A stretch of 64,000 nt of DNA. Source: a virus (taxonomy: Duplodnaviria; Heunggongvirae; Uroviricota; Caudoviricetes). Made by a program: the position numbers and the translations under genes. Location of the stretch: IMG/VR virus record IMGVR_UViG_2778261161_000002, one strand, 5' to 3'. The notes under the pieces were generated by a model. That model had not been told where the DNA came from. It did no database searches and saw nothing but the letters and a program-made list of their open reading frames with translations. Positions 5,788 to 35,829 of this stretch are shown one piece after another (the stretch's first letter is position 1; every line of letters begins with the position of its first letter).

Positions 5788-7470
5788 ATGGCAACGAAAG
5801 ACAAAAACAAAGGCTTTCTGTCAGCATTGAAGAAAGCCTTCAACGGTGGTGATGTTACGCCCGCCGATCCGGTCGTTTTTACGAGCGGACATAGTGTCGT
5901 TGCTCGTTCCGGCCTGTCTGCTTTACGTCCAGGCATCCTGGGGAGCAATAGCGATGGCATGACGAGTGAGGCAGATTCAATTTCTTTATCCGCTGAACTG
6001 CCCGGCGAGCGCCTGCAAAAGTACAACATCCTGGAAACGATGGCTAAAAGCCCGACTATCTCGACGGCTTTAAACATTCACATTGCACATGCGCTTGCGC
6101 CTTCAAAAAAAACCGGACAGGCATTCATCCTTTCGCCAAAGGATGGTTCCGATGCCGAGGCAGTAAGTAGATGTGAAGAGTTAACCGCTGATTTGGGGGC
6201 GATGATTAATGACGGACTTCCTTCATGGGCCATGATCATGGCGATCTTTGGGGTGTCTTATGTCCGACCTTATGCTGAACAGGGCAGGGGGATAACAGGC
6301 ATTGAGTCCAGTTATTACACTCTGCCACATTTCGTCCAGGAATTTTATCGCGGTAGCCAGCTGGTTGGATTCAGTGGTGATTACATCCTGGATACGCATA
6401 GTTTGCGCAGAGTAATAACCGAACCGTGGAATCTGGTTTCCATGAAAAATCCCTATTGGACGCCACAGCATAAAGTTATTCCGGTTAGCTACGGCACAAA
6501 AGGGTACTCACTGTTAAGTGAGCAGGCTGATAAGCCGTTAATGGAGACGCAGAATTACGGAACTTCATTCCTGGAATACAGCTATGAACCTTACCTTAAT
6601 TTATGTGCTTCGCTCGCCGCGCTGAAATCAACGCGAAATAATGCAGCCAAAATTGACCGCCTGATTGCTCTTACGACGAACACACTGGACCCGGTTAATG
6701 CGGCGAACTATACGCGTGGCGTCAGCCAGGCATTGAAGCGTCATAGTGACCTGGTGGCGCAAAGGTCGATTAATGCCAACGCTATTCCGACTGTGCTTAA
6801 CCATCTGATACCTGTTATGGGAGACGGGAAGAACGGCATCACCATTGATACGCAATCCATACCCGCAGATATCAGTGGTATCGAAGACGTTATGTTTCAC
6901 CTCCGGCAGCTTGCTGCAAGCCTCGGCATTGACGCAACAATGCTTGGCTGGGCTGATCAGATGAGCGGAGGGCTTGGAGAAGGCGGCTGGCAGCAAACTG
7001 CTATCCAGGCTGCATTGCGTGCGAACTGGATCAGACAGGCCGCCCAGCGAACTATTTATCGGCTTCTGGACATTCACCTCGCTTATAAATACGGCAAGGT
7101 TTACACCGAAACAAACCGCCCTTATGACGTGCAATTCAACTCAATGAACACTGCTATCCAGGAAGAGGAAAACCGGGAACTGGATGCACGCGCCAACTTT
7201 GTTGCTGTCATCTCCCAAATTATGGACCAGATCCAGAACAACCCGAAACTGGCTGGTAGTGACGCGTTTATGCGTTATCTGTTCACTGAGCAGTTGCACA
7301 TCGACGATGACACTCTCAACACCATGATCAAAGAGTTTAAGGCGAATGAATCAGAGCAAAACAACGAGCATGGTATGTACGAATCCGCGCCGTTGTCGTC
7401 CGGTGACGATCCGGAAAACTGGACGCCAGAACAGTTAATAAACTTTGCAAAATTTGTGATGAGCAATTAA
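5788..7470 (+). CDS. Hypothetical large protein, 560 aa (possible virion/morphogenesis-associated)
   Basis: ORF track; no motif I can name with certainty. Confidence 0.45.
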   Translation: MATKDKNKGFLSALKKAFNGGDVTPADPVVFTSGHSVVARSGLSALRPGILGSNSDGMTSEADSISLSAELPGERLQKYNILETMAKSPTISTALNIHIAHALAPSKKTGQAFILSPKDGSDAEAVSRCEELTADLGAMINDGLPSWAMIMAIFGVSYVRPYAEQGRGITGIESSYYTLPHFVQEFYRGSQLVGFSGDYILDTHSLRRVITEPWNLVSMKNPYWTPQHKVIPVSYGTKGYSLLSEQADKPLMETQNYGTSFLEYSYEPYLNLCASLAALKSTRNNAAKIDRLIALTTNTLDPVNAANYTRGVSQALKRHSDLVAQRSINANAIPTVLNHLIPVMGDGKNGITIDTQSIPADISGIEDVMFHLRQLAASLGIDATMLGWADQMSGGLGEGGWQQTAIQAALRANWIRQAAQRTIYRLLDIHLAYKYGKVYTETNRPYDVQFNSMNTAIQEEENRELDARANFVAVISQIMDQIQNNPKLAGSDAFMRYLFTEQLHIDDDTLNTMIKEFKANESEQNNEHGMYESAPLSSGDDPENWTPEQLINFAKFVMSN

Positions 7471-11856: not shown

Positions 11857-14800
11857 TTGGACAAACTACTTCATTCAATCAGTGAAGCCTCCAGCTTAGG
11901 CGAACTGATTGAAATTGTTAGTCGGTTGCATAAATTACGTGCTGTTGCGACCTTTGGCGTCAGGAAAGCCGATGGCGTCAGTATTCAGAAAACACGCCGG
12001 GCAGCAAACAATGCCGCAGTAAATCTTCTTAATTCCCTTCCGCCCGGCTTCGATGGGGCGAAATTAACTGACGAACAACGTCAGATTCTTGCTGGGTATA
12101 CCGGTGAAGGCGGCCTGACAGATGGTGAGGGCAGCCAATACGAATACTACACGCCACAGTTTATGGCTGAAGGTATATGGGATCTGTTTGCTGACTACGG
12201 TATTGATGGCGGGCACGTACTGGAACCATCAGCGGGCACAGGTATTTTCCAGGAGACAAAACGGCAGGGCATGATAATGACCAGCGCCGAACTGTCTCCG
12301 ATTTCTGGTCGAATAAACCAGCTTTTGCACCCGGAAGACGATGTGAATATCGGGGCGTTTGAGGCGCTGGCGGCGAAAGATGCAATGTATGACCACGCTG
12401 TTGGTAACGTACCGTTTGGTGAAGGGCGTTCCGGCGTTGCCGGGCTTGATCCGGCATATGCAAACGAGAAGAACGTTGGCAATTACTTTGTGCTGCGCAC
12501 GATCGACAAGGTTAAGCCTGGTGGGCTTATCGTATTGGTGGTGCCAAATGGCATGACCGATGGTACGAAATATAAAAAATTGCGCGATAAAGTCAGCCGT
12601 AAAGCGGAATTTTTGGGCGCGCATCGTATGCCTTCCGGTACGTTCAGTGAATCAGGTACAGATACCGTGGTGGACGTATGGGTATTGCGTAAACACCCGG
12701 AAGCCTTCCTGGAGATGATCCCCGATACGGATGATTCGACGCTCAAATCGGCAAACGTCCTTTGGGATACCTTCCTCAAAGGAAAATGGTTTACAACCGA
12801 AGGGAAGCGATTTGTTTACGGCGACATGGAACGTACCAGCTTCCGCAATACCCTGGTGGTGAAAAAAGACGGTCGTGTATCCAATGAGTCGATGAAAACC
12901 GCGCTATCTCGTCGCTTTGATAGTCGCATCAATTGGGATTTGCTCGGCGTAACTACTCAGGCATGGCAGGGCGCGAAAGTGGGCGATAAACGCCTTGTAG
13001 GCGGTATCTGGCATGAGTTTGATGGTCTGAAATGGGTTAAGGACACGACAACCAAATCCTCCGCGCTTGATGTAAGTCGATATGGTGTTTCGACGTTTGG
13101 CGATCTGCAGATCGCGTTCCAGTCAACAAACGGGATTCTGGCTTTGTCATGGGACCAGATATCGGCGATCGCGTCCGACTATCCATCGGTTGTCAGTGAT
13201 GAAGTGGCAGCAATGATTCGCTTTGCTGGCAAGCAGCGAGAAAAAGACAGGGAGCGCGTTATGCGCGGTGCACTGATAGGTCAGTTGATCAACAAGGCAC
13301 TTGATTTGCGTAACCTGGGGGTGAACGTTGATGACAAACTGGCAGATGCATCCCGCCTGGCGGCAGCAGAAGTTGCGAAGTATGGACCACCGCACGCGAT
13401 TAAGCTGAATGGGCTTGCTGAAGCTGGCGCTAAAAACTGGATGACGTTCACTGGCAATGTGAAACAGGATGGTTCCACTTCTGACCTTCTGGCAGGGCGA
13501 CTTGATGTAACGGATGGTGCTGCCGGTATTGACTTTACGCGTCCTGAACAAGTGATAGCACATCTTTTTAGTGATGTAGCCCTTAATCCTATAACGCTGG
13601 GCGACTTTCGTGAGGCGTTTGCTGGTGAACTGCCAGAGGACGACGACGCGGCCCTTGAATACCTGGCGAAATTTGATGATATCGCTATTGATGGGTATGG
13701 CTGTCTGCTGCCGATGGACCGCGCCACCAGCGGCGATGTTGCAACCAAAACAGCACTGCTGGTGGGTTGGCGTGATGCGTCAACAGGTGAGCAGAAAGCG
13801 AACTTTGAGCGTCAGTTGGCGAAAATCGAAGAGAAACGCATTTTCACGCCACTAAATAAAGTCACCGTTAATCTGAACGCCCGCTGGCTGGATCGCCGCT
13901 TGATAAAAGAGTTCCTGGCAGAGCAGGGCTATGACGAGTTTAAGTACACTGAACCTGATCTGAAGGTCGTCGATGGCATTCTGGTATCTCCGGACGATTA
14001 CGAAGGTAAGGACGGGGTATTTACCGGCTATCAGCTACGAACCGTAAACGGCAAAAACGGGAATGAGTTCAAGAAGGCCAACAATAAAGACGGCTTCCTG
14101 AACCAGTTAGAAAACTACCTGAACGGTGTTAAACCGCGTGGGCAGAACGCTAACGAGTACCTGGATAAAATTGCTCAACTGGAAGTTAGCTTTAACGACT
14201 GGTTACGCACTCACCCGCAGGCTGATCAGATAGCCCGCGAGTATAACGACGCATTCAATGGTTTCATTCCGTTCACGCATTCTGACGCACCGCTTGGCCT
14301 GGAAGGGATTAGTGGAAAGCGCATTCCTCTGACTTATCAGAATGAAGAAGTTCGGCGCTTGTCAGAAGATGGGCGCGGCATCATGGGATTTGGTACCGGG
14401 CTGGGTAAAACCACGACCGCGCTTGCGCTTGAGGCGTATAACTTCGAAACAGGTCGCACTAAACGCACGTGTATTGTTGTTCCGAAGGCGGTTTATCAGA
14501 ACTGGTATCACGAGGCACAGAGTTTCTACAGTGCTGATGCCTTCGCCAATATGATGTTTATCGGTTTGGATGAAGTTCGTGATGACAGCGGAAATATTCT
14601 GACCGCGCCGGTGCTTGATGAAAATGGCGAACCACGCCTCGACAGTAACGGGCAGCCTCTTACCAGAAATGTTGTGAAAGAGTCCGCCAGCGCCGTTATC
14701 GTTCAGCGCATGAACATGATCCCGTCGTCAAATTGGCGAACGGTCATCATGACAAAAGAACAATTCGCGTCTATCCCGCTACGAGAAAAAACCATCGAGG

Positions 14801-17800
14801 AGAACTCACAGCAAGCTGTCTTTAATGCTGTGGAAATGGGGCGTCTTGACCTGGCGTCTGGCAAACACCGTGATGCACAGAAGAAGAACAAGATTAAGGA
14901 TCAGGCCGCGAATACCGGTACAACGAAGAAGCAGAATATCCCGTACTTTGAGGATATGAACTTCGATAGCGTGATTGCCGACGAGGGGCATAACTACCGC
15001 AACTCCTTTAATGCCGGGCGTGAAGCGGGACAACTGGCATATTTGCCTAACCCGGCAGTATCCAAGATGGCCCGCGACATGGCTGTAAAAGCTGCGTACA
15101 TGATGAAACGCAACAACGGACGTGGTGTAGTCATGCTGACGGCAACTCCGCTGGTGAACAGTCCGATTGATGCCTTCAACATGCTGTCTACTGTCATTCC
15201 GCAGGAAGAGTGGATGCGCATGGGCATCATTACGCCTGATGATTTCGTTCGTGTGTTTGGCAAAACAGCCACAGTTCAGGTCCAGAAAATTTCCGGGGAA
15301 GTGGAAGAGAAGCAGGGGCTGGTGGGCTTCCAGAACCTTGATGGCCTGCGTGGTATTTTCCATCGTTGGACCACTCTGAAGACTGCCGCAGATGTCGGAG
15401 CGACGGTTAAAATTCCCGACATCATCGAGAACACCTTGCAGATCCCGATGACAGGGGAGCAGGAGTCTGCTTATGAAGAACTTCGTAAGCGTGCTCAGGA
15501 GTTAAGTCGCAATGATGAGCTGACAGTCGATGAAAACGGGCATATCACTAACGACAAACCGGATGATTTCATCTTCTCCATCATCCGTGACATGGACAAG
15601 GTTGCTATAGACCCGGATCTGTATGCCAGTGCGATTACATTCCAGTTCCCCGTTGAGCTTGCAGACCAGGTAAAAGCTATTGCTGATGCCTTGCCAAAAG
15701 TAGCTGGTGGTAAAGTGGCAGATGATGTTGATGAGGCCGAGGAAGACGGCGCTGGCGGGCTGGTCAGTACGCGTACCAGCAAGGTAGTGAAGACCGCTTT
15801 TAGTGAACATCCGACGCATGTTGAAATACGTGCCAGCATTGAACTGGAAGCTGAAATACTGAAGGCCATTGCGGCTGCCGGTATTGATATGCAGCAGGTA
15901 TCGCACCCCATCCCGCCGAAGTATGCCGCGCTGATCGAAAATCTTCGTGAAGGTCTGAAGAACGGTAAGCAGATCGTCTTTATTGATGAAAAAGCCCAGC
16001 ACCAGAAGCTGCGCCGTATTATCGCCAGTGCACTGCAAATGCCGGAGCAGGAGATTGGCATTATCAATGCGACGACAGTTAGCCAGGCTGGCGGCATCAA
16101 GCTGAAGAAGGTGAATAAGCCGACCGAACCTACTCCAAACAAAAACGGTGAATACAAAGAAGGGGCATGGGAAACCTACTACAGCAAACTTGCCCAATAT
16201 GAGGATTATCTCTCAGCTAAAAATGATGCTGGCCTTGAGGGCATGGAAGGTATTGCCGCCGACTATAACGAAGGTCGCACGCGCATCATAATCTGTAACA
16301 AGAAGGCTGAAGTAGGTATTAACCTGCACATCGGGACAACCGATATCCACCACCTGACACTACCCTGGACACCAGCCAGTATCGACCAACGAAATGGGCG
16401 CGGTGCGCGCATAGGTTCACCGCAAGAGAAGGTCAATGTTCACTACTATTGTGGCAAAGGCACATTCGACGACTTCCGTCTGGATACGCTGAAACGTAAG
16501 AAAGACTGGATCAAGATGGTGATGACCTCCGACATGTCAGAGATCGCCAATGGTGATGTGGATGATGCTGATGAACGCGCCATTATGCTGGCGGCAAACC
16601 CGGAAGAACGCCGCGCAATCATGGCTCGCCAGGCGCAAGAGCGTGAAGAACGTCTGAAACTGAAAGCACAGCGCGAGGCCAACAATGCTCTCGATATCTA
16701 CCTGAAAGCGGCAAACGCCGCCGGAAAAGATATCGGCATGATGGAGACAGAACTGAAAAGCGCGATGGAACAGATAGAGTATTACCAGCGCAATCTTGAC
16801 GACCTGATAAAAGCGGGTACGAACAGGAATGGGCAAAAATACGCGCTTGAGCAGTTGAGTAGCTACAGAAAACGTGCGCGGGTGCTGCGGTTTGCGATCA
16901 CCAGGGCAAAAGACGCGGATACCATAATGAAACGCTCTCGTGGTGATGTGGAGCGCGCTATTAAGTCTGGTGTGCTGGATATCAGTATCGATGTTATTCA
17001 GAACCCACAGGAATATATGCGCACTGACAAGAATATCCTGTTGCATAAAGGTAGTTATTACCGTGCAGTCATTGATGATCGCGAAACAACAGCGATTGTC
17101 CGGGTGGAAAAAATTGACGGTGAAAAAGCACAATACATCTGTCGTATCGCCTGGCTGGATAGAGCAAGTCGTTACGCTCGATCACCGGGGTCAATCGTTA
17201 CATTGCCGTTTGACTCTGTGATTGAAGCGGTAACTTTTGAAGAGGGGGTTGCTGAATCGCGCGCAACGGCTGCGCGTGGTGTTCAGTGCCACCAGCTATC
17301 AACAATACTTACTCGCGATCAGTTCTATGATGCTATTCGCAATGGGGTAATGAATGTTATTGCTGGTAAACCTGGTAATGCATGGGGCGGTGGATCAGCT
17401 ATTAAATACTGGGCATATCGCACAGAAGATGGTCAGATCGCGCTGTCATCGGCCTATGATGGCGTGATAGGCCAAAAAATCGGGCGAGCATCGGATATAG
17501 CACCTGAACGATGGATATATCCTGATGGCAACGACGAGGCGCTGAAGCGTGAAGTGGCAAAAATACAAGCCAGTGATAACCCGCTGAATATCGTGGACGG
17601 AGAGGGATTCCTCCAGGCATTGTATGGGTATGATTACATCCAGGGAATGCAGGCATGGGGCGCACAGGCAACGATGGATGATGTTGCCAAGGAGTTCGAA
17701 AACTGGATGGCTGGGCGTGGTCTGTCAGGTCGTTCGCTTAATAAAGTCACTTCTGAAGATATTCTTAGCTTGTTCCGTAAACCGTCCGGAGAAGGTCTGG

Positions 17801-18693
17801 AATCATTCTGGAGGACCGTGCTGGCATACCGTTTATTCCAGGGCAGGATGAAAGCCTTTAGCAATATCGATGATATTGAACGGATGTTTAATCAGGTCAA
17901 GATCGCGAAAATTAAGGCGAAGATCGAAAAAACACGTTCTGCGCTGGTGGCCTGGCGCGATGCATTGTTTGAGCAATATAAATCACTCAGTGATGCAGAT
18001 GGATGGGCGGCGCTGGAACAGTTGGCGAATAATGGGGTAGATGGGGCGAAACTCGCCATTGTCCAGGCTGATAACCCCCTGGAATCACCGGCAGCACAGT
18101 GGATTAAGGTGGGGGCTGTCATCAATGCATTTGATGAAAAACACATTAGTAAGGACGATTTTGCTGATGCTGTTTCTGTTAATCGCCTGGTAGAAATGGC
18201 TACCCGCCGCGCCCGTGAGTTGAAAGATGGCGACTATGTGAATGAGTTGCCGGATACGCTCAAATCGGCAACGTGGCAGGACTATGTATCGCTGAAAAAC
18301 GGCGGGGCCACTGAATCAGAGATCGCGGAAAGGCTTGAGCAGGCTGAAAGCAAAAGAGAAGAGCAGGCGGCAGTGGCTGAAGCCAGAGCTGATGAAGCGG
18401 CAAATGATGACTATATCATTGTGGTTAATGATAAGCCTATTCGCGCTAAGGCGCGTGTTCGCGGGCGCTGGTGGAGCGTCAGCGAGGACGTTGGCGCGGT
18501 TTATCTCATTGCCGACCAACCAGGTTCCTCGACAATACGGAACGCCAAAGACGCGATTAAGAAGATTGGCGGGCGTTTCTGGAATTTTGAAGTGAATCCG
18601 GTCGCGGATGTGGACTTTGACCGTCCGGCGTGGATGGTATCTACGCGTTACTCGGTAGATGAACTGCGTAAAATAATCGCCGATGCGGCTTAA
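11857..18693 (+). CDS. darB: Giant 2278-aa DarB-like protein: N-terminal N6-adenine MTase domain + SNF2/DExH helicase domain
   Basis: LEPSAGTGIF (motif I) and GNVPFGEG (motif IV-like); GFGTGLGKTTT Walker A; VIADEGHNYRN box II; DQRNGRGARIG motif VI; size matches P1 DarB. Confidence 0.7.
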   Translation: MDKLLHSISEASSLGELIEIVSRLHKLRAVATFGVRKADGVSIQKTRRAANNAAVNLLNSLPPGFDGAKLTDEQRQILAGYTGEGGLTDGEGSQYEYYTPQFMAEGIWDLFADYGIDGGHVLEPSAGTGIFQETKRQGMIMTSAELSPISGRINQLLHPEDDVNIGAFEALAAKDAMYDHAVGNVPFGEGRSGVAGLDPAYANEKNVGNYFVLRTIDKVKPGGLIVLVVPNGMTDGTKYKKLRDKVSRKAEFLGAHRMPSGTFSESGTDTVVDVWVLRKHPEAFLEMIPDTDDSTLKSANVLWDTFLKGKWFTTEGKRFVYGDMERTSFRNTLVVKKDGRVSNESMKTALSRRFDSRINWDLLGVTTQAWQGAKVGDKRLVGGIWHEFDGLKWVKDTTTKSSALDVSRYGVSTFGDLQIAFQSTNGILALSWDQISAIASDYPSVVSDEVAAMIRFAGKQREKDRERVMRGALIGQLINKALDLRNLGVNVDDKLADASRLAAAEVAKYGPPHAIKLNGLAEAGAKNWMTFTGNVKQDGSTSDLLAGRLDVTDGAAGIDFTRPEQVIAHLFSDVALNPITLGDFREAFAGELPEDDDAALEYLAKFDDIAIDGYGCLLPMDRATSGDVATKTALLVGWRDASTGEQKANFERQLAKIEEKRIFTPLNKVTVNLNARWLDRRLIKEFLAEQGYDEFKYTEPDLKVVDGILVSPDDYEGKDGVFTGYQLRTVNGKNGNEFKKANNKDGFLNQLENYLNGVKPRGQNANEYLDKIAQLEVSFNDWLRTHPQADQIAREYNDAFNGFIPFTHSDAPLGLEGISGKRIPLTYQNEEVRRLSEDGRGIMGFGTGLGKTTTALALEAYNFETGRTKRTCIVVPKAVYQNWYHEAQSFYSADAFANMMFIGLDEVRDDSGNILTAPVLDENGEPRLDSNGQPLTRNVVKESASAVIVQRMNMIPSSNWRTVIMTKEQFASIPLREKTIEENSQQAVFNAVEMGRLDLASGKHRDAQKKNKIKDQAANTGTTKKQNIPYFEDMNFDSVIADEGHNYRNSFNAGREAGQLAYLPNPAVSKMARDMAVKAAYMMKRNNGRGVVMLTATPLVNSPIDAFNMLSTVIPQEEWMRMGIITPDDFVRVFGKTATVQVQKISGEVEEKQGLVGFQNLDGLRGIFHRWTTLKTAADVGATVKIPDIIENTLQIPMTGEQESAYEELRKRAQELSRNDELTVDENGHITNDKPDDFIFSIIRDMDKVAIDPDLYASAITFQFPVELADQVKAIADALPKVAGGKVADDVDEAEEDGAGGLVSTRTSKVVKTAFSEHPTHVEIRASIELEAEILKAIAAAGIDMQQVSHPIPPKYAALIENLREGLKNGKQIVFIDEKAQHQKLRRIIASALQMPEQEIGIINATTVSQAGGIKLKKVNKPTEPTPNKNGEYKEGAWETYYSKLAQYEDYLSAKNDAGLEGMEGIAADYNEGRTRIIICNKKAEVGINLHIGTTDIHHLTLPWTPASIDQRNGRGARIGSPQEKVNVHYYCGKGTFDDFRLDTLKRKKDWIKMVMTSDMSEIANGDVDDADERAIMLAANPEERRAIMARQAQEREERLKLKAQREANNALDIYLKAANAAGKDIGMMETELKSAMEQIEYYQRNLDDLIKAGTNRNGQKYALEQLSSYRKRARVLRFAITRAKDADTIMKRSRGDVERAIKSGVLDISIDVIQNPQEYMRTDKNILLHKGSYYRAVIDDRETTAIVRVEKIDGEKAQYICRIAWLDRASRYARSPGSIVTLPFDSVIEAVTFEEGVAESRATAARGVQCHQLSTILTRDQFYDAIRNGVMNVIAGKPGNAWGGGSAIKYWAYRTEDGQIALSSAYDGVIGQKIGRASDIAPERWIYPDGNDEALKREVAKIQASDNPLNIVDGEGFLQALYGYDYIQGMQAWGAQATMDDVAKEFENWMAGRGLSGRSLNKVTSEDILSLFRKPSGEGLESFWRTVLAYRLFQGRMKAFSNIDDIERMFNQVKIAKIKAKIEKTRSALVAWRDALFEQYKSLSDADGWAALEQLANNGVDGAKLAIVQADNPLESPAAQWIKVGAVINAFDEKHISKDDFADAVSVNRLVEMATRRARELKDGDYVNELPDTLKSATWQDYVSLKNGGATESEIAERLEQAESKREEQAAVAEARADEAANDDYIIVVNDKPIRAKARVRGRWWSVSEDVGAVYLIADQPGSSTIRNAKDAIKKIGGRFWNFEVNPVADVDFDRPAWMVSTRYSVDELRKIIADAA

Positions 18694-26048: not shown

Positions 26049-26441
26049 ATGGAACAAATCAGCAGCGCAGAAATTGCGGATATCATGATCAGGGCTGACT
26101 GCTATCTGACAGTCACTGAAATTACCACTCTCGCCAAAGAAAAATACCCTCATCTCCATGTTTCACGAGTAAGTGTAACTAACATCATTCGTCATTTTGT
26201 TCGTTCAAGCAGGGCAATCTGTGAGCTGGATGATCGTGTGTATCCACGAAAATACTGGCTACATGGTCTGAACGGATATCAGTTCAAGGTGCGCGGGCGC
26301 ACGCCTGAATACGGTAGCTTACTGGTTAAAAACTGTAGCAGGAAATCAGTCGAACAGGCGCGAAAAGAGCAACGAGAGCTGGTGGACATGGCGAATAAGC
26401 TGTGGAATGCCGCCGTTAAAAAGCGTGGTGTTGCTTTATGA
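26049..26441 (+). CDS. Hypothetical protein upstream of pacA (Lpa-like position), 130 aa
   Basis: ORF track; position immediately upstream of terminase genes. Confidence 0.4.
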   Translation: MEQISSAEIADIMIRADCYLTVTEITTLAKEKYPHLHVSRVSVTNIIRHFVRSSRAICELDDRVYPRKYWLHGLNGYQFKVRGRTPEYGSLLVKNCSRKSVEQARKEQRELVDMANKLWNAAVKKRGVAL

Positions 26442-27802
26442 GTCTGGTTAATTGGGAGGAGCACCGCGCCCGCTTTATAGCGTTGCGTGAAGAAAAAGGG
26501 ATCACTGTAAAGGAATACTGTGAGGAGCATGGCCTTAGCTTCAATACAGCCAGAAAGCATCTCAATATGAAAAAAAATGAGGTGCGGTCGCAGGTAAAGA
26601 CAACAAAAAAAAGCACCAAATCACCTGAAAAAAAACGGGCGGGAAGAGCAACAAAAAAGCTGGAAGAGGGCGCAGAAAAAACAAAATTTACAGAAATTGA
26701 CAATTCGCAGGGTGCAGGTTCTTTCCGAAGTATGCCAAGAAAGAAAACTCCGGATCATGAAAGTAATACCAATAATAACAATGAGATAAAAGAATCTGTC
26801 AGGAGATCATTGCGCGAAAAAATGGCGAAAATGATCCCCGAAGAAGATAAAAGCGCCCCAAAAATTGAGGGATCTTCAGCAATGATCCCTGGCGGTGCTG
26901 TGCAACGTGCCACATTGCCCACTACGAATGTGGCTCGCGACATGATGAAGAACGGCGCAGAAGAACACCTGCGGTTAGCAATTCAAATGGCGCAAGAGCG
27001 CGCACTTCAGTATCAAAGCATTGTTGATCAGGAGGCCGAACGTCTACAGGCGGAAATAGACGCCTTGGGCGATAAAGAGCCAGAAGGAATGCACCCTGGG
27101 CAGCGCCTTCTCGGTCTAATCAGTGACGCGGCCTACTACATGAATGATTTTATCAGTAGGTTGGCAGCTATATATCAGTCCGAACAAAAGCTGCGACAGG
27201 GGGATGAAAAGCTTCGTCAGAGCGCTCGCCAGCAAGCATTCAAAGAGGCTGAGGCCAGAGAAAAACTCGAATTAGCACGCCTACAGGCCGAACAGCGTGG
27301 CAAAGAGATTGAATATCGCATTGGCGCTGACGCACGCGCAGCCAGAGTTATCGCCGCCGCTATACGTATGCGTGAGCGCGAGGAACTGGATGATATCGGT
27401 GTTGCTGAATACATCGAGCGCCAGGGGGTCAGCGTCCCGGCTATCCTCGCGGCGCGCGCGGCGAAAGCTATCACTCTTCTCGAACCACCTGTTTCTGACG
27501 TCAATGATGTTGATGATGAACAGCTGGACAAAGAGGCAAGGGAGTTTGCGACGCTTCAGGCTAACCATCCGCAATGGCTGGCAGAGCGCCGGGCGGATGT
27601 GGCAACCATTGTTGAAGAATTGGGGTGCGGAGATTACGACCGCAATGGCGAGCGTAAAGCTGGAGAATTCGAGGCCAACGACGAAGAGCTGGATATTGAC
27701 CCTTCGGCAACGGCTGAAATTTACGGTGATTATGATGCATCTGATGCAGGGTATGACGCCGGAGATGATGATATCGCGATAGAACCGCCGGAGGATGATT
27801 AA
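26438..27802 (+). CDS. pacA: Terminase small subunit PacA-like, 454 aa, acidic C-terminus
   Basis: Position upstream of and coupled to PacB-like ATPase; basic N-terminus, acidic tail DASDAGYDAGDDDIAIEPPEDD; contains GATC cluster. Confidence 0.55.
   Translation: MSLVNWEEHRARFIALREEKGITVKEYCEEHGLSFNTARKHLNMKKNEVRSQVKTTKKSTKSPEKKRAGRATKKLEEGAEKTKFTEIDNSQGAGSFRSMPRKKTPDHESNTNNNNEIKESVRRSLREKMAKMIPEEDKSAPKIEGSSAMIPGGAVQRATLPTTNVARDMMKNGAEEHLRLAIQMAQERALQYQSIVDQEAERLQAEIDALGDKEPEGMHPGQRLLGLISDAAYYMNDFISRLAAIYQSEQKLRQGDEKLRQSARQQAFKEAEAREKLELARLQAEQRGKEIEYRIGADARAARVIAAAIRMREREELDDIGVAEYIERQGVSVPAILAARAAKAITLLEPPVSDVNDVDDEQLDKEAREFATLQANHPQWLAERRADVATIVEELGCGDYDRNGERKAGEFEANDEELDIDPSATAEIYGDYDASDAGYDAGDDDIAIEPPEDD
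26750..26890. other. Candidate pac (packaging cleavage) site: 5 GATC sites in about 135 bp
   Basis: GATC at 26753, 26805, 26833, 26871, 26884 in contexts GGATCA, AGATCA, TGATCC, GGATCT, TGATCC. Confidence 0.45.
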
Positions 27803-29310
27803 TGGCTGGAGGGCGCAAGATTAAATGCGTCACCAGCGATCCACGCTGGCGCGATATGGTAATCAAATACCGCTACAACTTTACCCAGGCTGTTGTCGAT
27901 ATTTTTGGGATGTTCCCCTCCCACCAGCAGCAGCAGATCATTCAGTCCGTGCAGGAAACGGGGAGTAGGACGACCGTCACGTCCGGACACGGAACGGGGA
28001 AGTCGTCCCTTACCGCGATGTTGCTGTTGATTTTCATGATCCTGTTCCCCGATGCCCGTGTCATCATTGTTGCTAACAAGATAGGCCAGGTAAAAACAGG
28101 CGTATTCAAATACGTTAAACAGTATTGGGCGAATGCAGTTAAGCGTCATGGGTGGTTGCAGACCTATTTTGTCCTCTCTGACACCATGTTTTATGAGCGC
28201 TCCCGTAAGGGGATTTGGGAAGTTCTCTGCAAAGGTTATCGACTCGGCAACGAAGAAGCGCTGGCGGGGGAACACGCGGCACATTTGCTTCTAATTCTGG
28301 ATGAAGCATCTGGTATATCTGATAAGGCGATCGGCGTAATGACCGGTGCTCTTACTGAAGAAGATAACCGGATGTTGATGCTATCCCAGCCAACAAGGCC
28401 AAGTGGTTATTTTTACGATTCGCACCATTCTCAAGCAAAAACCCCAGACAACCCGAAAGGGATCTGGACAGCAATTGTTCTTAACTCGGAAGAATCACCG
28501 TTCGTCACACCACAATTCATCAAGCAGAAGCTTCTGGAATATGGGGGGCGCGATTCTATTGAGTACATGGTCAAGGTGCTTGGTCAGTTCCCACGAGAAA
28601 TTAACGGCTATTTGCTTGGTCGTGATGAATGCGATCGCGCTGCTCGCCGCAAGGTGCTGTTGGAGAAAAACTGGGGATGGGTGGCAACGGCTGACGTTGG
28701 TAATGGGCGAGATAAGTCGGTCCTCAACATCTGCAAGGTATCTGGTCACAGGGATAAGCGGCGCGTTGTTAACTTTAAGGTAATGGAGATGCCTGGCACT
28801 ATGGACCCATTGGCCTTTGCTGACTTCATATATAACGAATGTACGCCGGAAAAATACCCGAATATAACAATCGCGGTTGATGCTGATGGTTTTGGTTCTG
28901 ATACGTGTGCGCAGTTGGTGCGTCGTGGTGCGAACCCGGTACGTATTCGGTGGGGAAAACCCATGTTTGCGAACAAAGACAGGGAGCGATTTGTTAATCA
29001 GCGTGCCTACGCAAATATTATGGCGCGAGATGCCATAAAGTCAGGGCGTATGCGGATAGACAGTGACCCTAAAACGGCAGAGCAAGCGTCAAAAATCCCC
29101 TTTTTACTGAATGAAGAAGGGAAAATGGCGATGATGCGCAAAGAGCACATGCGGCAAAAGCTAAACATCAAATCGCCTGACCGATGGGATACCTACTGCT
29201 TCACTATGCTGGTGGACTATGTGCCTGCTAATGAAGATATTGGTGCCGAAATGGCAACTTTCCGAGATCAGGTTCTGGCGGATATCGAAATGCCGGATCT
29301 GGATATATAA
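27802..29310 (+). CDS. pacB: Terminase large subunit PacB-like, 502 aa
   Basis: Walker A TSGHGTGKSS, Walker B LLLILDEASGI, C-terminal acidic nuclease-like region. Confidence 0.75.
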   Translation: MAGGRKIKCVTSDPRWRDMVIKYRYNFTQAVVDIFGMFPSHQQQQIIQSVQETGSRTTVTSGHGTGKSSLTAMLLLIFMILFPDARVIIVANKIGQVKTGVFKYVKQYWANAVKRHGWLQTYFVLSDTMFYERSRKGIWEVLCKGYRLGNEEALAGEHAAHLLLILDEASGISDKAIGVMTGALTEEDNRMLMLSQPTRPSGYFYDSHHSQAKTPDNPKGIWTAIVLNSEESPFVTPQFIKQKLLEYGGRDSIEYMVKVLGQFPREINGYLLGRDECDRAARRKVLLEKNWGWVATADVGNGRDKSVLNICKVSGHRDKRRVVNFKVMEMPGTMDPLAFADFIYNECTPEKYPNITIAVDADGFGSDTCAQLVRRGANPVRIRWGKPMFANKDRERFVNQRAYANIMARDAIKSGRMRIDSDPKTAEQASKIPFLLNEEGKMAMMRKEHMRQKLNIKSPDRWDTYCFTMLVDYVPANEDIGAEMATFRDQVLADIEMPDLDI

Positions 29311-29337: not shown

Positions 29338-30375
29338 TTACCAGAGCTTCGCGGCGTACTGCGTTTGGGGGAATGTGTATCCGTAACGTTCTTCGATTGC
29401 TTTGCCGTATTTTTTACGAGCTTCATTCAGTTTAATGCCGGTCAGGTCGTCTCCAGAGGCCATCATTACGTCTAACAATTCCAGATCCATTTTATCCAGC
29501 CTTGCCATTGCTTCACGTGATGTACGTATCTTACGTTCAATGATATGGCGAATAGCCGGATCGGCATCCTCCAGCATCTTAGCGGATTTCTGCTTAAGGC
29601 TTTCATTGCGAATATCGATGTTCCTTAAGATGTACGACTTCGCAACGTAGCTTGGCTGGTGTTTTTCCAGGTCACGAACACGATATAAGTTAAAATCGCC
29701 GAGAAGGCTGCAAGGTACCGATTCGACGCCAGAATAAATTGTAATGCTCCGGCGTTCACCAACATTATTGACAACGGGGATCGTTGTCTTCGGTAGTCTT
29801 GCGAAAACCAATGCGCCATGTGCGCCAACTCTAAAGCGAGAAAGGGCATTGCTGCCTTCGATGTTTGTTGTCAGCACAACATCTGTATATGCCTCTTTAC
29901 GCGCCCGGTAGATCTCGCCTTCAGGCTCAGCTTCAAAGAAGCGCTGTTCTTCTTCAAGAGCACCTACGATTTGAGAAAAAACCCTATTTTTCAGGCTTTT
30001 CTTTATGATTTTGTCGTATTTTTTTAGCAATTGTTCACGTGTAAATGTACGTGTTGTTGTAGCGCTTTGCACAACGACATGCGTGCTTTGATTGGTGTCC
30101 TCAATGATGAATGGGATCGGAGAATATACAGACTCAACAATGTTCGACGCTTTGCCGTCGGCATCGCGGCACATGTCAACGAAGGCTTTCCATTCAGCAA
30201 GACATTTTTCAGCTTCTTCTAATATGTTTTGGTCATGCGTTAATGCAACATGGCGGAATTCCTCGCCAGCATAACTGGTATCATGGAAAACAGAGTTTGC
30301 GACCACCAGCTCTTTCCACCGTTCAGCGGTTTGCAGGAACCGTTTGTACTCTTTCTCGATCGACTTCTTACTCAT
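29338..30375 (-). CDS. Putative C1-like immunity repressor, 345 aa
   Basis: Position between pacB and lox/cre as in P1; operator-like motif 20 bp upstream of its start; no family motif verified. Confidence 0.4.
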   Translation of the reverse strand: MSKKSIEKEYKRFLQTAERWKELVVANSVFHDTSYAGEEFRHVALTHDQNILEEAEKCLAEWKAFVDMCRDADGKASNIVESVYSPIPFIIEDTNQSTHVVVQSATTTRTFTREQLLKKYDKIIKKSLKNRVFSQIVGALEEEQRFFEAEPEGEIYRARKEAYTDVVLTTNIEGSNALSRFRVGAHGALVFARLPKTTIPVVNNVGERRSITIYSGVESVPCSLLGDFNLYRVRDLEKHQPSYVAKSYILRNIDIRNESLKQKSAKMLEDADPAIRHIIERKIRTSREAMARLDKMDLELLDVMMASGDDLTGIKLNEARKKYGKAIEERYGYTFPQTQYAAKLW

Positions 30376-30584: not shown

Positions 30585-30618
30585 ATAACTTTAAATAATT
30601 GGCATTATTTAAAGTTAG
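30585..30618 (+). other. lox-like recombination site: ATAACTTTAAATA-ATTGGCAT-TATTTAAAGTTAG
   Basis: 13-bp inverted arms (12 of 13 complementary) around an 8-bp asymmetric spacer; outer arm ATAACTT identical to loxP; about 150 bp upstream of Cre homolog. Confidence 0.7.
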
Positions 30619-30626
30619 GCTATAAT
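30599..30626 (+). promoter_or_regulatory. Sigma70-like promoter TTGGCA-N16-TATAAT overlapping the lox-like site
   Basis: -35 TTGGCA 30599..30604 lies in the lox spacer; -10 TATAAT 30621..30626; reads toward cre homolog. Confidence 0.45.
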
Positions 30627-30769: not shown

Positions 30770-31798
30770 ATGAGTGAATTAATTATCTCTGGCAGTTCCG
30801 GTGGTTTTCTGCGCAACATTGGCAAAGAGTACCAGGAAGCCGCAGAAAACTTTATGCGGTTCATGAATGACCAGGGGGCTTATGCGCCGAATACTCTGCG
30901 CGACCTCCGGTTGGTGTTTCATTCCTGGGCGCGCTGGTGTCACGCTCGCCAGCTTGCCTGGTTTCCGATCTCACCAGAAATGGCCCGCGAGTATTTTCTT
31001 CAGCTGCATGATGCCGATCTGGCTTCGACCACCATTGATAAGCACTACGCCATGCTGAACATGCTGCTTTCGCATTGTGGCCTTCCGCCACTTTCGGATG
31101 ATAAAAGTGTTTCTCTGGCTATGCGGCGCATCCGGCGCGAAGCGGCAACTGAAAAAGGCGAACGAACAGGCCAGGCTATACCGCTTCGGTGGGACGATCT
31201 GAAACTGCTCGACGTCCTGTTGTCCAGGTCAGAACGGCTGGTGGACCTGCGCAACCTGGCTTTTCTCTTTGTTGCATACAATACGCTGATGCGTATGTCG
31301 GAAATATCGCGTATTCGTGTAGGTGATCTGGACCAAACAGGTGACACTGTCACGCTACATATTTCACACACGAAGACAATAACGACCGCCGCCGGGCTTG
31401 ATAAGGTGCTTTCCCGTCGCACTACCGCTGTGCTGAATGACTGGCTGGATGTTTCCGGGCTTCGCGAGCATCCTGACGCTGTGCTGTTCCCGCCGATACA
31501 CCGTAGCAATAAGGCCAGGATCACGATAACGCCCCTTACTGCACCTGCAATGGAGAAAATATTCAGCGACGCCTGGGTGTTGCTGAATAAAAGAGATGCT
31601 ACGCCAAACAAAGGAAGATACCGGACGTGGACCGGGCATAGTGCACGCGTCGGGGCCGCTATTGATATGGCTGAAAAGCAGGTGTCTATGGTGGAGATCA
31701 TGCAGGAAGGAACCTGGAAGAAACCGGAAACACTTATGCGGTATCTTCGCCGTGGCGGCGTGTCTGTGGGGGCTAATAGCCGCCTGATGGATTTGTAA
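30770..31798 (+). CDS. cre: Cre-like tyrosine recombinase, 342 aa
   Basis: Blocks WFPISPEMAREYFLQL, NMLLSHCGLPPLSDDKSVSLAMRRIRRE, IRNLAFLFVAYNTLMRMSEISRIRVGDL, WTGHSARVGAAIDMA, LMRYLRR align with P1 Cre including catalytic R, H, R, W, Y. Confidence 0.85.
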   Translation: MSELIISGSSGGFLRNIGKEYQEAAENFMRFMNDQGAYAPNTLRDLRLVFHSWARWCHARQLAWFPISPEMAREYFLQLHDADLASTTIDKHYAMLNMLLSHCGLPPLSDDKSVSLAMRRIRREAATEKGERTGQAIPLRWDDLKLLDVLLSRSERLVDLRNLAFLFVAYNTLMRMSEISRIRVGDLDQTGDTVTLHISHTKTITTAAGLDKVLSRRTTAVLNDWLDVSGLREHPDAVLFPPIHRSNKARITITPLTAPAMEKIFSDAWVLLNKRDATPNKGRYRTWTGHSARVGAAIDMAEKQVSMVEIMQEGTWKKPETLMRYLRRGGVSVGANSRLMDL

Positions 31799-32216: not shown

Positions 32217-32689
32217 AAACTTATTACCCATCTCTGAATTGTTACCCGTCTTCCTATCCAGAATTATCCGGGAAGCTGTTAGCTCTATTAGCTAAAGCAC
32301 CTACGGAATGGTTTAAGCCAGTCGTTATCAATCCACACTTCCTGGATTACGGAACTGTTCGCACTCGTAACGAACTCAAAAACCTACTGGCGCATGGATT
32401 CATTCGACACCGTGCCGGGAAAGGCTATCAGTTAGCGATTGCGCCAGAAGAGGCCGTGCGGCTATTCGCATATCGTGACAGCCAGACAAAAGCTCGGGTA
32501 ATAGCTCAAATACTTCATAACGGCAGCACCTATGCCCGCCAGTTTGGCGGCGACACGTCGCAGTTCTTGCGGGCGGTGCGATCGCTGGAGGAGCAAGGAG
32601 TTATTGAAAGTTCCTGTCTTCCTGTTCCTACCGTTCCACATATCAAACGTCGGGTTTACACCTTCACGCAGAGAGCTAAAAAACAATGA
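32213..32689 (+). CDS. Hypothetical protein, 158 aa
   Basis: ORF track. Confidence 0.45.
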   Translation: MKTYYPSLNCYPSSYPELSGKLLALLAKAPTEWFKPVVINPHFLDYGTVRTRNELKNLLAHGFIRHRAGKGYQLAIAPEEAVRLFAYRDSQTKARVIAQILHNGSTYARQFGGDTSQFLRAVRSLEEQGVIESSCLPVPTVPHIKRRVYTFTQRAKKQ

Positions 32690-33180
32690 TTTACGTAAAA
32701 GTGAAACGCCTACATCCGGCAGCAAAACTTCCAGCTTATGCCACCTCCGGATCGGCGGCGATGGATTTTGAGGCTGTTGAAATAAAACCATGCGTCGATA
32801 GCAATGGTGCAATTTCCTCAAGCTGGTGGGTGTACACCGGACTGGCTATGGAGATCCCGCCCGGCTGGTGTCTGAAACTCTATCCGCGCTCCGGATTGGG
32901 CTGCAAAAAACATACTCGCCTGGCTAACTGCGTAGGAATTATCGACTCCGATTATCGCGGTGAAATCATGGCAAAACTGATTACTGATCCCGGCGGGGAA
33001 GGCGTTTGTCTCAAGCCTGGAATGGCTGTCATGCAAGGCATTTTTGAGCGTGTTGAACAAGTCTCACTAGTCGAGGTTGAGGAACTCAACGAAACGGAAC
33101 GTGGTGCTGGTGGCTTTGGTAGCACATCGGAAGACCACTTTGAAATCAAGCGCACACCGCTTCAGTACGCAAAGTTTTAA
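32686..33180 (+). CDS. dut: dUTP diphosphatase (dUTPase)
   Basis: Motifs SGSAAMDF, PRSGLG, GIIDSDYRGEI, ERGAGGFGSTSE. Confidence 0.85.
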   Translation: MIYVKVKRLHPAAKLPAYATSGSAAMDFEAVEIKPCVDSNGAISSSWWVYTGLAMEIPPGWCLKLYPRSGLGCKKHTRLANCVGIIDSDYRGEIMAKLITDPGGEGVCLKPGMAVMQGIFERVEQVSLVEVEELNETERGAGGFGSTSEDHFEIKRTPLQYAKF

Positions 33181-33194
33181 GCAGAGGAAAGGCT

Positions 33195-33896
33195 ATGAAT
33201 TACATGACAACGAAAGAGCTTTTTAAGTTCCTTCCCAAATACAAAGCTCACAAAAACGTTAGTGCATCGAAAATCAAAAATGTTGTTATTTTCGGAGTAA
33301 CTGCTTCCCCACTTTGGGGCTGCATCGAACTCGTTGAACCAAAAGGGGCAACAGTTTGTGTTGACGCAATTTTTTTACAAAAACACCGACCAAAAACTGG
33401 CGGGTATCTGATCGTTTATGAAAACGGTTATCTGTTCTATGCCCCGGAGAAACCATTTGAGCAATGCTATGGCCTGGTTAACGACGCCTCCGAAAATGGG
33501 GTATCGCTCAGCATTGAAGGTCACAATGGGGTGACATTCATTACAGCCAGGGACGTAACTATTTCTGCTGGCGGTATCGCTACTCTACAAGAAGAAATCG
33601 ACCTTGAAGCAGCCGACTTTTCTGACGCGCTGATGTGGCTGAAGGATGGCAAGAAAGTTGCTCGACGCGGGTGGAACGGCGAAAACCAATTCTGCTGGCT
33701 GGTTCCTGACAAACAGGGTGCTTCAAGACTAACCCCTATAAAACATGCCGCAAACGGAGAGCTTGAAATCAATTTCGACTCTCCTCTTGCTCCTTATGGT
33801 GCGCATTTCGTTTTGAAAAATGCACAAGGTGTAGTTGTTCCATGGATGCCTTCTGTAGGTGACCTGCTGGCATGTGACTGGTTTGTAGTGGAGTGA
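33195..33896 (+). CDS. DUF2829 (Tad2-like) domain protein with N-terminal extension, 233 aa
   Basis: C-terminal LMWLKDGKKVARRGWNGENQFCWL ... VVVPWMPSVGDLLACDWFVVE matches DUF2829. Confidence 0.6.
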   Translation: MNYMTTKELFKFLPKYKAHKNVSASKIKNVVIFGVTASPLWGCIELVEPKGATVCVDAIFLQKHRPKTGGYLIVYENGYLFYAPEKPFEQCYGLVNDASENGVSLSIEGHNGVTFITARDVTISAGGIATLQEEIDLEAADFSDALMWLKDGKKVARRGWNGENQFCWLVPDKQGASRLTPIKHAANGELEINFDSPLAPYGAHFVLKNAQGVVVPWMPSVGDLLACDWFVVE

Positions 33897-33902
33897 TTTA
33901 AC

Positions 33903-34709
33903 GTGGAAAATACTAAAGCAATTCAATACCGCTTGCGTAATGGCCTGCTGGTGGCTGTTAACGCCGACATGTCACTGCCGTTTGACACGATTGAACGCAC
34001 CATAATGACGTATCTCGGCTTTAATGAAGAACTGAATGAAGAGCATGGCGTAGCTATATGGAGTGATGCAGACAGCGGCGTTCGTCGTTACATCACCGCC
34101 AGGGGCAAAGACTACTCTCTGGAAGAACTGTTTGCCCTTGCGCAGTCTTTCGAATGTGTAGCATTAGACCTGTTTAATGATCCTGCTATAGCGCAACGAC
34201 TTATACGCGAGCTTGGGCTATCCGTTACACCAATTATCTTTAAAAATGGCAGCCTGACTGGCACATGGCGCGTAGAACGCATATCAAACTACCTTCCATA
34301 TAACCGACAGTTAAATGGAGTAATCTCCGGCGTTAATCAGCCCGTAGCATGTGAAAATGTAAACCTGGTTGTCGCTGTTTTGGCAACCGCATGTCGTGTT
34401 ATCGGTTTGGCTAAACAGGCATTTATTCATTTCCCAAATGGTGCAGAAGGTAGCGCAGAGATTATCGCGTGTGATTTCGAATTTACCTGGATGCTACGCG
34501 AATATCTGGACCAAACAGTATTCCGTGCCGAAGAACTGGATATGTATATCACGTCAACGATTCCAGACGATGTGCGAGCTGAAGCAATCGCTACAGCCAG
34601 GGCGAAATGCCGTGCGGCGATTGCAGAACAGGCCAAAGAAGAACAGTCCGATGAAGTCGCGGCAGATGTGGAGGCAGAGGTAGCGGAGGATGCTGATGCT
34701 GACGCCTAA
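33903..34709 (+). CDS. Hypothetical protein with acidic C-terminal tail (PacA-like position in paralogous module)
   Basis: Ends EEQSDEVAADVEAEVAEDADADA; overlaps downstream ATPase-like ORF. Confidence 0.45.
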   Translation: MENTKAIQYRLRNGLLVAVNADMSLPFDTIERTIMTYLGFNEELNEEHGVAIWSDADSGVRRYITARGKDYSLEELFALAQSFECVALDLFNDPAIAQRLIRELGLSVTPIIFKNGSLTGTWRVERISNYLPYNRQLNGVISGVNQPVACENVNLVVAVLATACRVIGLAKQAFIHFPNGAEGSAEIIACDFEFTWMLREYLDQTVFRAEELDMYITSTIPDDVRAEAIATARAKCRAAIAEQAKEEQSDEVAADVEAEVAEDADADA

Positions 34710-35796
34710 AAACATCACCGAATTACCAGAGTGGAGAGAGCTGGTAAGCAAATATAGCCATGACTGGGCATTAGCAGCAGAAGAGTTGATGGGTGTTAAG
34801 TTAACCCACCAGCAAAAGCTAATTGTTGAGGCGATTCAACAAAAAGGTTCAGCAGTCAGCGTCACCACTCCTGAAGGGATAGGCCAAAAGACGGTTATCG
34901 CTATAATTAGTATTCTTTATACAATCCTGATGCCTGAGTCTAAAACGGTTATTGTTTCCCCAAAGTTCTATAATTGTCGCAGGCAAGTTATCCAATACAT
35001 AAGTACGTATTGGGATAGAGTCAGTAACAGAATCCCATTGCTGGGAGAATATTTTAAAGTCGATGGAAACGGCATCAATCATCGTTACCGGGAATATTGG
35101 GGCTGCGAAATTAAGCCATATCACCGAAATTATGAGGAAGGTTTCGGTGGATATTATGCTGAACATCTTTTAATCATTGTTACGGAGGCGGCTCTTGCTG
35201 GCGATCGGCTATTCAGCATGTTAAGAGCATCGTTAGTAAGTGACGATTCACGTATACTTTTAATGTCCGCTCCTTCAGAGGAGGAGCATGGACACTTTTA
35301 CGATTCCCATCATGGTCGTGCTAAATCAGAAGAAAATCCATGTGGTATTTATACAGCCATCAAGCTGAACGCAGAAGATACCCCCATTATTTCTCAAGGT
35401 TATCTTGATAACATTGCAGAAATATATGGTGGTAAAAACAGCGATTACTACCGTCGTATGATTCTTGGTGAGTTTCCTGGTATTAGGGAGGCTGTTCTTG
35501 AATCAGATATGCCGAAGACAATGCGCTTTTCGATGCCTGATGGTAGTGAATGGATAATGCCATTACGAGTGATAGCCCGGCATCATGCACAGCACCACGC
35601 CAAAAAACATGGCGTTACAACATTGGAGTGGTTGAAATCGCACACCATTCCACTCTTCACTGCAGATCACAATGCTATCGTTGAGTGGGCAAAAACAATT
35701 CCGTGGGAGAATGTTGCTGAATACGCCCACATGCTAAAACCGCCGAAAGACAGGCAAGAAATTAGCTGGCTGACAGCAGAAAAAATCATTGAGTGA
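34690..35796 (+). CDS. Terminase-ATPase-like paralog of PacB N-terminal domain, 368 aa, degenerate Walker A
   Basis: HQQKLIVEAIQQKGSAVSVTTPEGIGQKT vs PacB HQQQQIIQSVQETGSRTTVTSGHGTGKSS; GHFYDSHHGRAKS vs GYFYDSHHSQAKT; no C-terminal nuclease region. Confidence 0.55.
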   Translation: MLMLTPKNITELPEWRELVSKYSHDWALAAEELMGVKLTHQQKLIVEAIQQKGSAVSVTTPEGIGQKTVIAIISILYTILMPESKTVIVSPKFYNCRRQVIQYISTYWDRVSNRIPLLGEYFKVDGNGINHRYREYWGCEIKPYHRNYEEGFGGYYAEHLLIIVTEAALAGDRLFSMLRASLVSDDSRILLMSAPSEEEHGHFYDSHHGRAKSEENPCGIYTAIKLNAEDTPIISQGYLDNIAEIYGGKNSDYYRRMILGEFPGIREAVLESDMPKTMRFSMPDGSEWIMPLRVIARHHAQHHAKKHGVTTLEWLKSHTIPLFTADHNAIVEWAKTIPWENVAEYAHMLKPPKDRQEISWLTAEKIIE

Positions 35797-35803: not shown

Positions 35804-35829
35804 AAGCCCGCCTGGTTGAGCGGGCTTCT
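35804..35829. terminator. Bidirectional terminator GAAGCCCGC-ctggttga-GCGGGCTTC
   Basis: Hairpin with T-run; between convergent genes. Confidence 0.7.

Follow-up and report, generated by a model that had tools for sequence, protein, structure and literature searches.

A predicted pseudo-terminase paralogous to the PacB ATPase domain, with an unrelated C-terminal domain, in an accessory region of a D6-type phage-plasmid

Two overlapping open reading frames (ORFs), here called ORF-A and ORF-B, occupy positions 33903 to 35796 of a 64,000-nucleotide stretch of viral DNA (IMG/VR record IMGVR_UViG_2778261161_000002; the whole stretch is referred to below as the window). On nucleotide similarity the window is a D6-type member of the P1 family of phage-plasmids: it is 94.6% identical to Escherichia phage D6 at 58% coverage, and Escherichia coli plasmids such as CP057047 are 100% identical to the window region. 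ORF-A is classed by its sequence as a homologue of P1 IsaA. ORF-B is classed as a pseudo-terminase, in which a degenerate paralogue of the ATPase domain of the resident large terminase, PacB, is followed by a small domain of another family. The features on which this description depends are the following.

26438 to 27802, plus strand: PacA, the resident small terminase-type subunit, which is not related to ORF-A
27802 to 29310, plus strand: PacB, the resident large terminase and parent paralogue of ORF-B
33903 to 34709, plus strand: ORF-A, IsaA homologue of 268 amino acids with an acidic C-terminal tail
34696 to 35796, plus strand: ORF-B, pseudo-terminase of 366 amino acids (an alternative ATG lies at 34690)
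34696 to 35481, plus strand: N-terminal domain of ORF-B with a predicted large terminase (TerL)-type ATPase fold, catalytically degenerate (AlphaFold [AF2] model and Foldseek)
34807 to 34824, plus strand: HQQ block of ORF-B
34867 to 34893, plus strand: Walker A remnant TPEGIGQKT, opposite SGHGTGKSS of PacB (GHGTGKS at 27985 to 28005)
35167 to 35190, plus strand: Walker B remnant LLIIVTEA, opposite LLLILDEA of PacB
35296 to 35313, plus strand: FYDSHH block, invariant in ORF-B homologues and PacB (PacB counterpart at 28411 to 28428)
35482 to 35793, plus strand: C-terminal small phage domain of ~100 amino acids (C-terminal module of phrog_17928), in the place of the nuclease

Translation of ORF-B probably starts at the ATG at 34696, which is preceded by GGAGG 6 nt upstream, and the RefSeq homologues are annotated at 366 amino acids. 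BLASTP aligned the protein with the N-terminal 264 residues of the window PacB (34% identity over 258 amino acids, 2 gaps, E = 3e-52). The initial annotation of this locus had described the second protein as a paralogue of the PacB ATPase domain that shares its HQQ and YDSHH blocks; the alignment bears this out, in that the similarity is highly significant, the HQQ and FYDSHH blocks are real, and the P-loop is not intact. ORF-B is 34 to 36% identical to the PacB proteins of P1, P7, D6, SJ46, and RCS47 alike (E of ~1e-47 to 1e-52), and it matches phrog_5902, a family of unknown function, over its full length (E = 1.7e-133, residues 7 to 367, 359-position profile). In the AF2 model of ORF-B (pLDDT 78.8), the N-terminal domain is predicted to take the ASCE ATPase fold of the TerL type: the top Foldseek matches in the PDB are the TerL ATPase domains of P74-26, T4 gp17, D6E, Sf6, and HK97 (E of ~1e-8), and in the viral structure library BFVD only large terminases are matched. 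Sequence-based searches of domain and system collections gave no assignment; neither ORF-A nor ORF-B has a match above threshold in Pfam or NCBIfam, no match at E ≤ 1 was obtained in PADLOC-DB v2 for ORF-A, ORF-B, or the Tad2-like neighbour, and a PDB sequence search returned nothing for ORF-A, ORF-B, or the profile of the small domain. Likewise, no paper was found in the literature that gives a function for IsaA or for a pseudo-terminase of the ORF-B type. A P1-type homologue of ORF-B (L003 4971-6065, MH422554) is mislabelled in the public record as "terminase large subunit."

The catalytic motifs were compared in an alignment of six ORF-B homologues (37 to 88% identity) together with PacB. 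In ORF-B the Walker A sequence GHGTGKS of PacB is replaced by PEGIGQK(T), as had been noted from the window copy alone, and the degeneration extends through the family; the column of the Walker A Lys reads Q/Q/H/R/T/E in the six members, and the Asp-Glu pair of Walker B reads TE/AE/MD/VD/LN/IN. Because both positions vary across the aligned homologues, the loss of catalytic residues is, as judged from this alignment, a property of the whole ORF-B family and not a quirk of the window copy. The residues kept invariant throughout the ORF-B/PacB alignment are the Q-motif Gln, the G-x-G of the P-loop, the S-x-P of motif III, FYDSHH, NP.G, and GG. The window allele carries a K-T one residue out of register and retains the Walker B Glu, but that K varies within the family (K/K/P/T/T).

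The nuclease half of PacB (residues ~265 to 502) has no counterpart in ORF-B. The initial annotation was therefore correct that the nuclease region is missing, but ORF-B is not a mere truncation, since a distinct small domain stands in its place. In the AF2 model, this C terminus is a β-hairpin followed by three helices, which belongs to another family than the nuclease. When 1.84 billion representatives were searched with a profile of the last ~105 residues of ORF-B, 922 protein clusters scored at E ≤ 1e-3, of which 283 reached E ≤ 1e-10; almost all are stand-alone proteins of ~100 amino acids. No Pfam family was found for the domain. Its members (proteins P0023 to P0171) share the motifs MPDGS.W.VP..VIA..RA and DWA.NNMNW.DV...GW.NG; the window copy lacks the family motifs NNMNW and DDGW.NG. 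The domain is also fused to the C terminus of DUF1351/coiled-coil proteins (P0047, P0120, and P0128), and in P0025 (246 amino acids, possibly truncated) it stands at the N terminus, ahead of a pseudo-terminase N-domain whose Walker A sequence is GSGTGTTT. Given this reversed fusion, the small domain and the pseudo-terminase are linked in both orders. These sequence comparisons identify the C terminus of ORF-B as a distinct domain rather than a truncation stump, and the small domain looks like an undescribed family. Stand-alone loci, which were located by means of a degenerate DNA pattern on 96 viral contigs from 63 lineages, place the gene in the early or accessory regions of temperate phages. 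The genes beside it vary (integrase, RecT, exonuclease, DnaB, and cytosine methylase among them), and none is conserved as a neighbour throughout the 63 lineages. DUF1351 genes, for their part, accompany phage single-strand-annealing recombinases in a Gam-like position (PMC8093625).

ORF-A matches phrog_2326 in a profile search (E = 8.8e-137, residues 1 to 257) and is ~48% identical to the P1-type IsaA protein, and D6 orf113 is annotated as "similar to P1 gene isaA." On the strength of these matches ORF-A is assigned as a homologue of P1 IsaA, a family that is restricted to P1-type plasmids of Enterobacterales. The gene is nonessential in P1, as found in a CRISPR interference screen (PMC10695390). 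The acidic C-terminal tail, by which the first protein had originally been characterized, is present and ends in DEVAADVEAEVAEDADADA, but it is not conserved among ORF-A homologues and is absent in many of them. PacA (26438 to 27802) likewise has a long acidic tail, ending in ...DASDAGYDAGDDDIAIEPPEDD; there is no homology behind this likeness, which probably prompted the earlier pairing of the two proteins. ORF-A was rejected as a relative of PacA (BLASTP E = 19, hhalign probability 0.1%), its predicted fold gave no match resembling a small terminase (TerS), and neither PacA similarity nor an N-terminal helix-turn-helix, the marks of a small terminase, was found in it. The suggestion of a catalytically dead, terminase-like pair thus survives for ORF-B, by its degenerate motifs, and fails for ORF-A, which is not terminase-like. 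A candidate fusion of IsaA (P0005) was also rejected, as its 74-residue N-terminal extension is an out-of-frame overcall across the 3' end of isaA.

Read from the ATG at 34696, ORF-B overlaps the end of isaA by 14 nt, and this start/stop overlap is conserved in D6-type and P1-type loci. P1-type phages free of IS1 have isaA and an ORF-B that is 49% identical, and in them too the stop codon of the one overlaps the start codon of the other; the pair stands between ssb on one side and the antirestriction genes hxr-ddrB-ddrA-darA on the other. When P1 (L005, NC_005856 21569-24132) is compared with this arrangement (L003 4184-6065), the similarity ends exactly at the isaA stop/ORF-B start, ~94 bp before IS1, and IS1 and isaB come next; IsaB has no match to ORF-B. 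This comparison suggests that the isaA-IS1-isaB locus of P1 is derived and that an ORF-B homologue was replaced there. ORF-B is absent from P1, RCS47, SJ46, and D6; another gene follows the isaA position in RCS47, and D6 has isaA without ORF-B. Conversely, L007 has no isaA, and its ORF-B homologue (6001-7098, 38% identical) immediately follows a DnaB/Ban-type helicase gene; in the L007/L018 lineage the homologue precedes baseplate genes on the opposite strand. The slot of ORF-B in L007 is occupied in Cronobacter phage JK004 (L116 4501-4797, gene_35) by a stand-alone small domain only. Upstream of the L007 helicase lies a gene (1869-2261) for a 130-residue protein with a crAss001_48-related domain (PF21825, listed as "Sequestin").

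In PLSDB, homologues of IsaA were found in 474 plasmids and the ORF-B C-domain in 166. In L010, ORF-B is identical to that of the window and isaA is at 62 to 70% nucleotide identity; in L008, isaA is near-identical and the ORF-B N-domain is at 50 to 70%. The C-domain has 94 to 100% nucleotide identity in all D6-type plasmids compared. The alleles of isaA and ORF-B thus appear, from these patterns of identity, to reassort independently, and the pair is only a loose module. IsaA is a frequent, translationally coupled upstream partner of ORF-B, which is neither a PacA equivalent nor obligatory. The initial idea of a duplicated pacA/pacB module is abandoned on these grounds, as ORF-A is an IsaA homologue that has no PacA similarity, the two genes are separable, and their alleles reassort.

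The D6-type allele of ORF-B was found in 45 of 5,426 complete E. coli genomes, always on a plasmid, in single copy, and never on the chromosome. Another 47 D6-type plasmids retain just the last ~37 to 43 nt of ORF-B beside doc (hits H237 to H241), a remnant of ~40 nt that resembles either the scar of a deletion or the boundary of a recombination event. Otherwise ORF-B is maintained as an intact, full-length reading frame (38 to 100% identity) in three or more genomic contexts; all of these are on plasmids, and just a part of the P1 family carries the gene. This locus matches a hot spot of variation that has been published for P1-like plasmids as RD-2, or "region 2" (PMC6906374, PMC9603915). 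Relative to the window, the ratios of nonsynonymous to synonymous substitution rates (dN/dS) are 0.27 to 0.48 for the ORF-B N-domain, 0.08 to 0.25 for its C-domain, and 0.12 to 0.15 for IsaA. As these values are below 1, ORF-B is taken to be a functional gene under purifying selection, with an N-domain that, on the same substitution ratios, is either fast evolving or relaxed.

Variation of the N-domain does not follow that of the resident terminase. In one plasmid, PacA and PacB are 99.8% and 100% identical to those of the window and the ORF-B N-domain is only 76% identical; in a second, PacB is 99% identical and the N-domain only 52%. No covariation of ORF-B with the resident PacA/PacB was found, and because the N-domain varies while PacA and PacB are near-identical, ORF-B is not coevolving with the resident terminase. 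Nor were TGATCR hexamers, which could mark a second pac site, found in positions 33903 to 35796, which is a weak test, as the resident pacA region has only one. ORF-B is an optional accessory gene and not part of a second packaging machine. Given that P1 and D6 lack the gene and that P1 does not require isaA, a core role in packaging is unlikely.

ORF-B lies ~5.4 kb downstream of pacB, past the c1-like and cre-like genes, in a separate string of genes. The features that surround it are the following.

29338 to 30375, minus strand: c1-type repressor
30599 to 30626, plus strand: promoter-like site (11 of 12 matches) upstream of the cre-like gene, from a consensus scan only
30770 to 31798: cre-like recombinase, separated from the dUTPase gene by two small ORFs
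32686 to 33180: dUTPase
33195 to 33896, plus strand: Tad2-like/DUF2829 protein, the upstream neighbour of ORF-A (Pfam PF11195, E = 2.7e-21)
35810 to 35825, plus strand: terminator-like hairpin just 3' of the ORF-B stop, from a consensus scan only

By gene order, the promoter-like site heads a tightly packed, co-oriented string that runs from cre to ORF-B, beyond which lie the convergent doc/phd genes and humD. The Tad2-like (DUF2829) protein has an N-terminal extension of ~140 amino acids, which shows a mosaic pattern when related plasmids are compared; D6 and L008 lack it, and their gene encodes 146 amino acids only. Elsewhere in the window, a very large ORF of 2278 amino acids (11857 to 18693, plus strand) may encode the DarB-type protein of P1-family phages.

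We propose that the ATPase half of a PacB-type protein was copied, that the copy lost the P-loop Lys, the Walker B acidic pair, and the entire nuclease domain, and that it was joined to a domain of ~100 amino acids that is common in the early regions of temperate phages. The product would act as a binder that neither hydrolyses ATP nor cuts DNA, and it would mimic the PacB ATPase domain, competing for whatever normally contacts that domain. On balance, ORF-B is probably such an exapted, binding-only pseudo-enzyme, a mimic of the terminase ATPase in an accessory role. Mimicry of the PacB ATPase is favoured because PacB is the closest relative of ORF-B and the blocks common to both lie outside the active site. 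Neither ORF-A nor ORF-B has an enzymatic domain or a PADLOC match, and a binder therefore fits better than a defence effector. ORF-B is also found among early, DNA-metabolism, and anti-defence-type genes (in the window, the Tad2-like gene upstream) and away from pacAB.

The identity of the target is much more tentative. Our favoured candidate, which we regard as possible but far from assured, is the host immunity that senses terminase ATPase domains, namely, Avs1-3 and Upx; a dominant-negative action on PacA, PacB, or the portal, and a part in recombination or the metabolism of DNA ends, mediated by the small domain, are the next candidates, each somewhat less likely still. The TerL ATPase domain by itself suffices for recognition by EcAvs2 and Upx, which makes the role of an immune decoy conceivable; in this case ORF-B would be expressed early or in the lysogen, so as to titrate the sensor or weaken its response. 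The most specific form of this proposal, in which ORF-B neutralises Avs1-3/Upx by filling the sensor pocket without the ATP-dependent contacts while the small domain stops oligomerisation of the sensor, is doubtful.

Several points weigh against binding-only mimicry directed at immune sensors. By analogy with T4 vs.8, which triggers such sensors, the binding of a mimic to an Avs-type sensor should activate it and not block it. Residual nucleotide binding by ORF-B is possible as judged from its sequence, because the Q-motif Gln is invariant and the window allele has the shifted K-T and the Walker B Glu. The small domain and its DUF1351 fusions are associated with recombination and replication genes, which suggests a role in DNA metabolism no less than one in immunity. 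The promoter and terminator calls near ORF-B are consensus matches only, and the mechanism is one that we infer throughout.

Of the other explanations, the one that survives best, although it is rather unlikely, is that ORF-B is a dominant-negative inhibitor of packaging: by attaching to PacA, PacB, or the portal, with the surfaces that it has in common with PacB, it would give inactive complexes, and pac cleavage or assembly of the motor would be prevented. Such an inhibitor might, with equal reserve, serve to hold back the resident terminase in the lysogen or during early induction or to sabotage co-resident P1-family phages or satellites. This would agree with PacB being the nearest relative of the N-domain and with invariant blocks (the N-terminal helices and FYDSHH...NP.G...LN.E.SP) that lie outside the catalytic motifs and may be interaction surfaces, and any complex that contains ORF-B, having no nuclease or active ATPase, would be inert. 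However, N-domain alleles at 52 to 76% identity accompany resident PacA/PacB proteins that are 99 to 100% identical, the equal distance of ORF-B (34 to 36%) from the five PacB proteins compared reveals no target specificity, and the gene lies outside the packaging operon and is dispensed with by P1 and D6.

An accessory factor of early DNA metabolism (recombination, replication, or DNA-end handling) is likewise rather unlikely; here the small C-domain would be the functional core, and the dead ATPase fold would, no more probably, provide DNA or protein binding. The stand-alone domain does occur among RecT, exonuclease, DnaB, methylase, and integrase genes, its DUF1351 fusion partners are neighbours of single-strand-annealing recombinases (PMC8093625), ORF-B follows ssb in P1-type phages and a Ban-type helicase gene in L007, and the stand-alone domain of JK004 occupies the same slot as the L007 gene. 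Yet no neighbour is kept across the 63 lineages, the same early regions also house anti-defence genes, so that context does not discriminate, and the window copy is without the NNMNW and DDGW.NG motifs.

A decaying, functionless pacB duplicate, i.e., a pseudogene in progress, would accommodate the lost and variable catalytic motifs, an N-domain dN/dS (0.27 to 0.48) above those of IsaA and the C-domain, and the frequent loss of the gene, but it is very improbable in view of a full-length ORF kept at 38 to 100% identity in at least three genomic contexts, dN/dS values well under 1 with the noncatalytic blocks retained invariant, a fusion partner that is conserved, also in swapped domain order, and the conserved translational coupling with isaA. 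Just as hard to credit is a still-active ATPase with a noncanonical P-loop that uses the K-T shifted by one residue, for which the GIGQKT and Walker B Glu of the window allele and the invariant Q-motif Gln and S-x-P of motif III could be cited, but the shifted K is replaced by P or T in other members, the Walker B acidic residues are missing in half of the family (LN and IN), and in the model the P-loop helix begins at Q66 and not at K67.

Terminase ATPase domains are a major molecular pattern sensed by bacterial immunity (Avs1-3 and Upx), and the recognition of stand-alone paralogues of these domains in phages, e.g., T4 vs.8, is very recent, with no role known for them as yet. ORF-B, a dead but conserved paralogue of PacB whose alleles diversify, provides an amenable model in E. 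coli for studying the role of such paralogues, and it sits in an accessory hot spot of a widespread phage-plasmid family that also spreads resistance genes. If the decoy proposal is true, an arms race with the sensors would account for the diversity of N-domain alleles, and ORF-B would be the first anti-defence protein born by duplication of the very protein that is sensed by the host. A small phage domain that had no annotation, with 922 clusters and no Pfam family, is delimited here as well.

Compared with the PacB proteins of P1 and D6, ORF-B is homologous over the N-terminal ~260 amino acids and has in common the predicted TerL ASCE ATPase fold, the Q-motif Gln, S-x-P, and FYDSHH; it differs in that it is without the Walker A Lys, the Walker B Asp/Glu, and the RNase-H-like nuclease domain, has an unrelated C-domain of ~100 amino acids, and is an optional gene in an early/accessory region that is not beside pacA. 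ORF-A is homologous to P1 IsaA, and the order isaA-ORF-B is also seen between ssb and hxr in IS1-free P1-type phages, whereas ORF-A lies in a different slot, the cre-dut-tad2 string, and has a variable acidic tail. The last ~100 residues of ORF-B match the profile of the small phage domain family, whose members are mostly stand-alone, and the window copy has diverged from NNMNW and DDGW.NG. The packaging-interference proteins of satellites, i.e., Ppi of Staphylococcus aureus pathogenicity islands (SaPIs) and Rpp of phage-inducible chromosomal islands (PICIs), target TerS. They share the concept of a noncatalytic protein that diverts or blocks packaging by binding to part of the terminase, but their folds are unrelated, they are satellite encoded, and nothing found here points to a TerS-type target of ORF-B. 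T4 vs.8 is similar, as likened by description, in being a phage-encoded second terminase ATPase domain that is nuclease-less, lies outside the packaging genes, and is of unknown function (bioRxiv 10.64898/2026.04.30.721860). The terminase lineages differ (T4 gp17 and PacB, respectively), and vs.8 keeps intact Walker A and B motifs (preprint, bioRxiv 10.64898/2026.04.30.721860), whereas the motifs of ORF-B are degenerate and an extra C-domain is present. ORF-B is classed here with the terminase-derived pseudo-enzymes.

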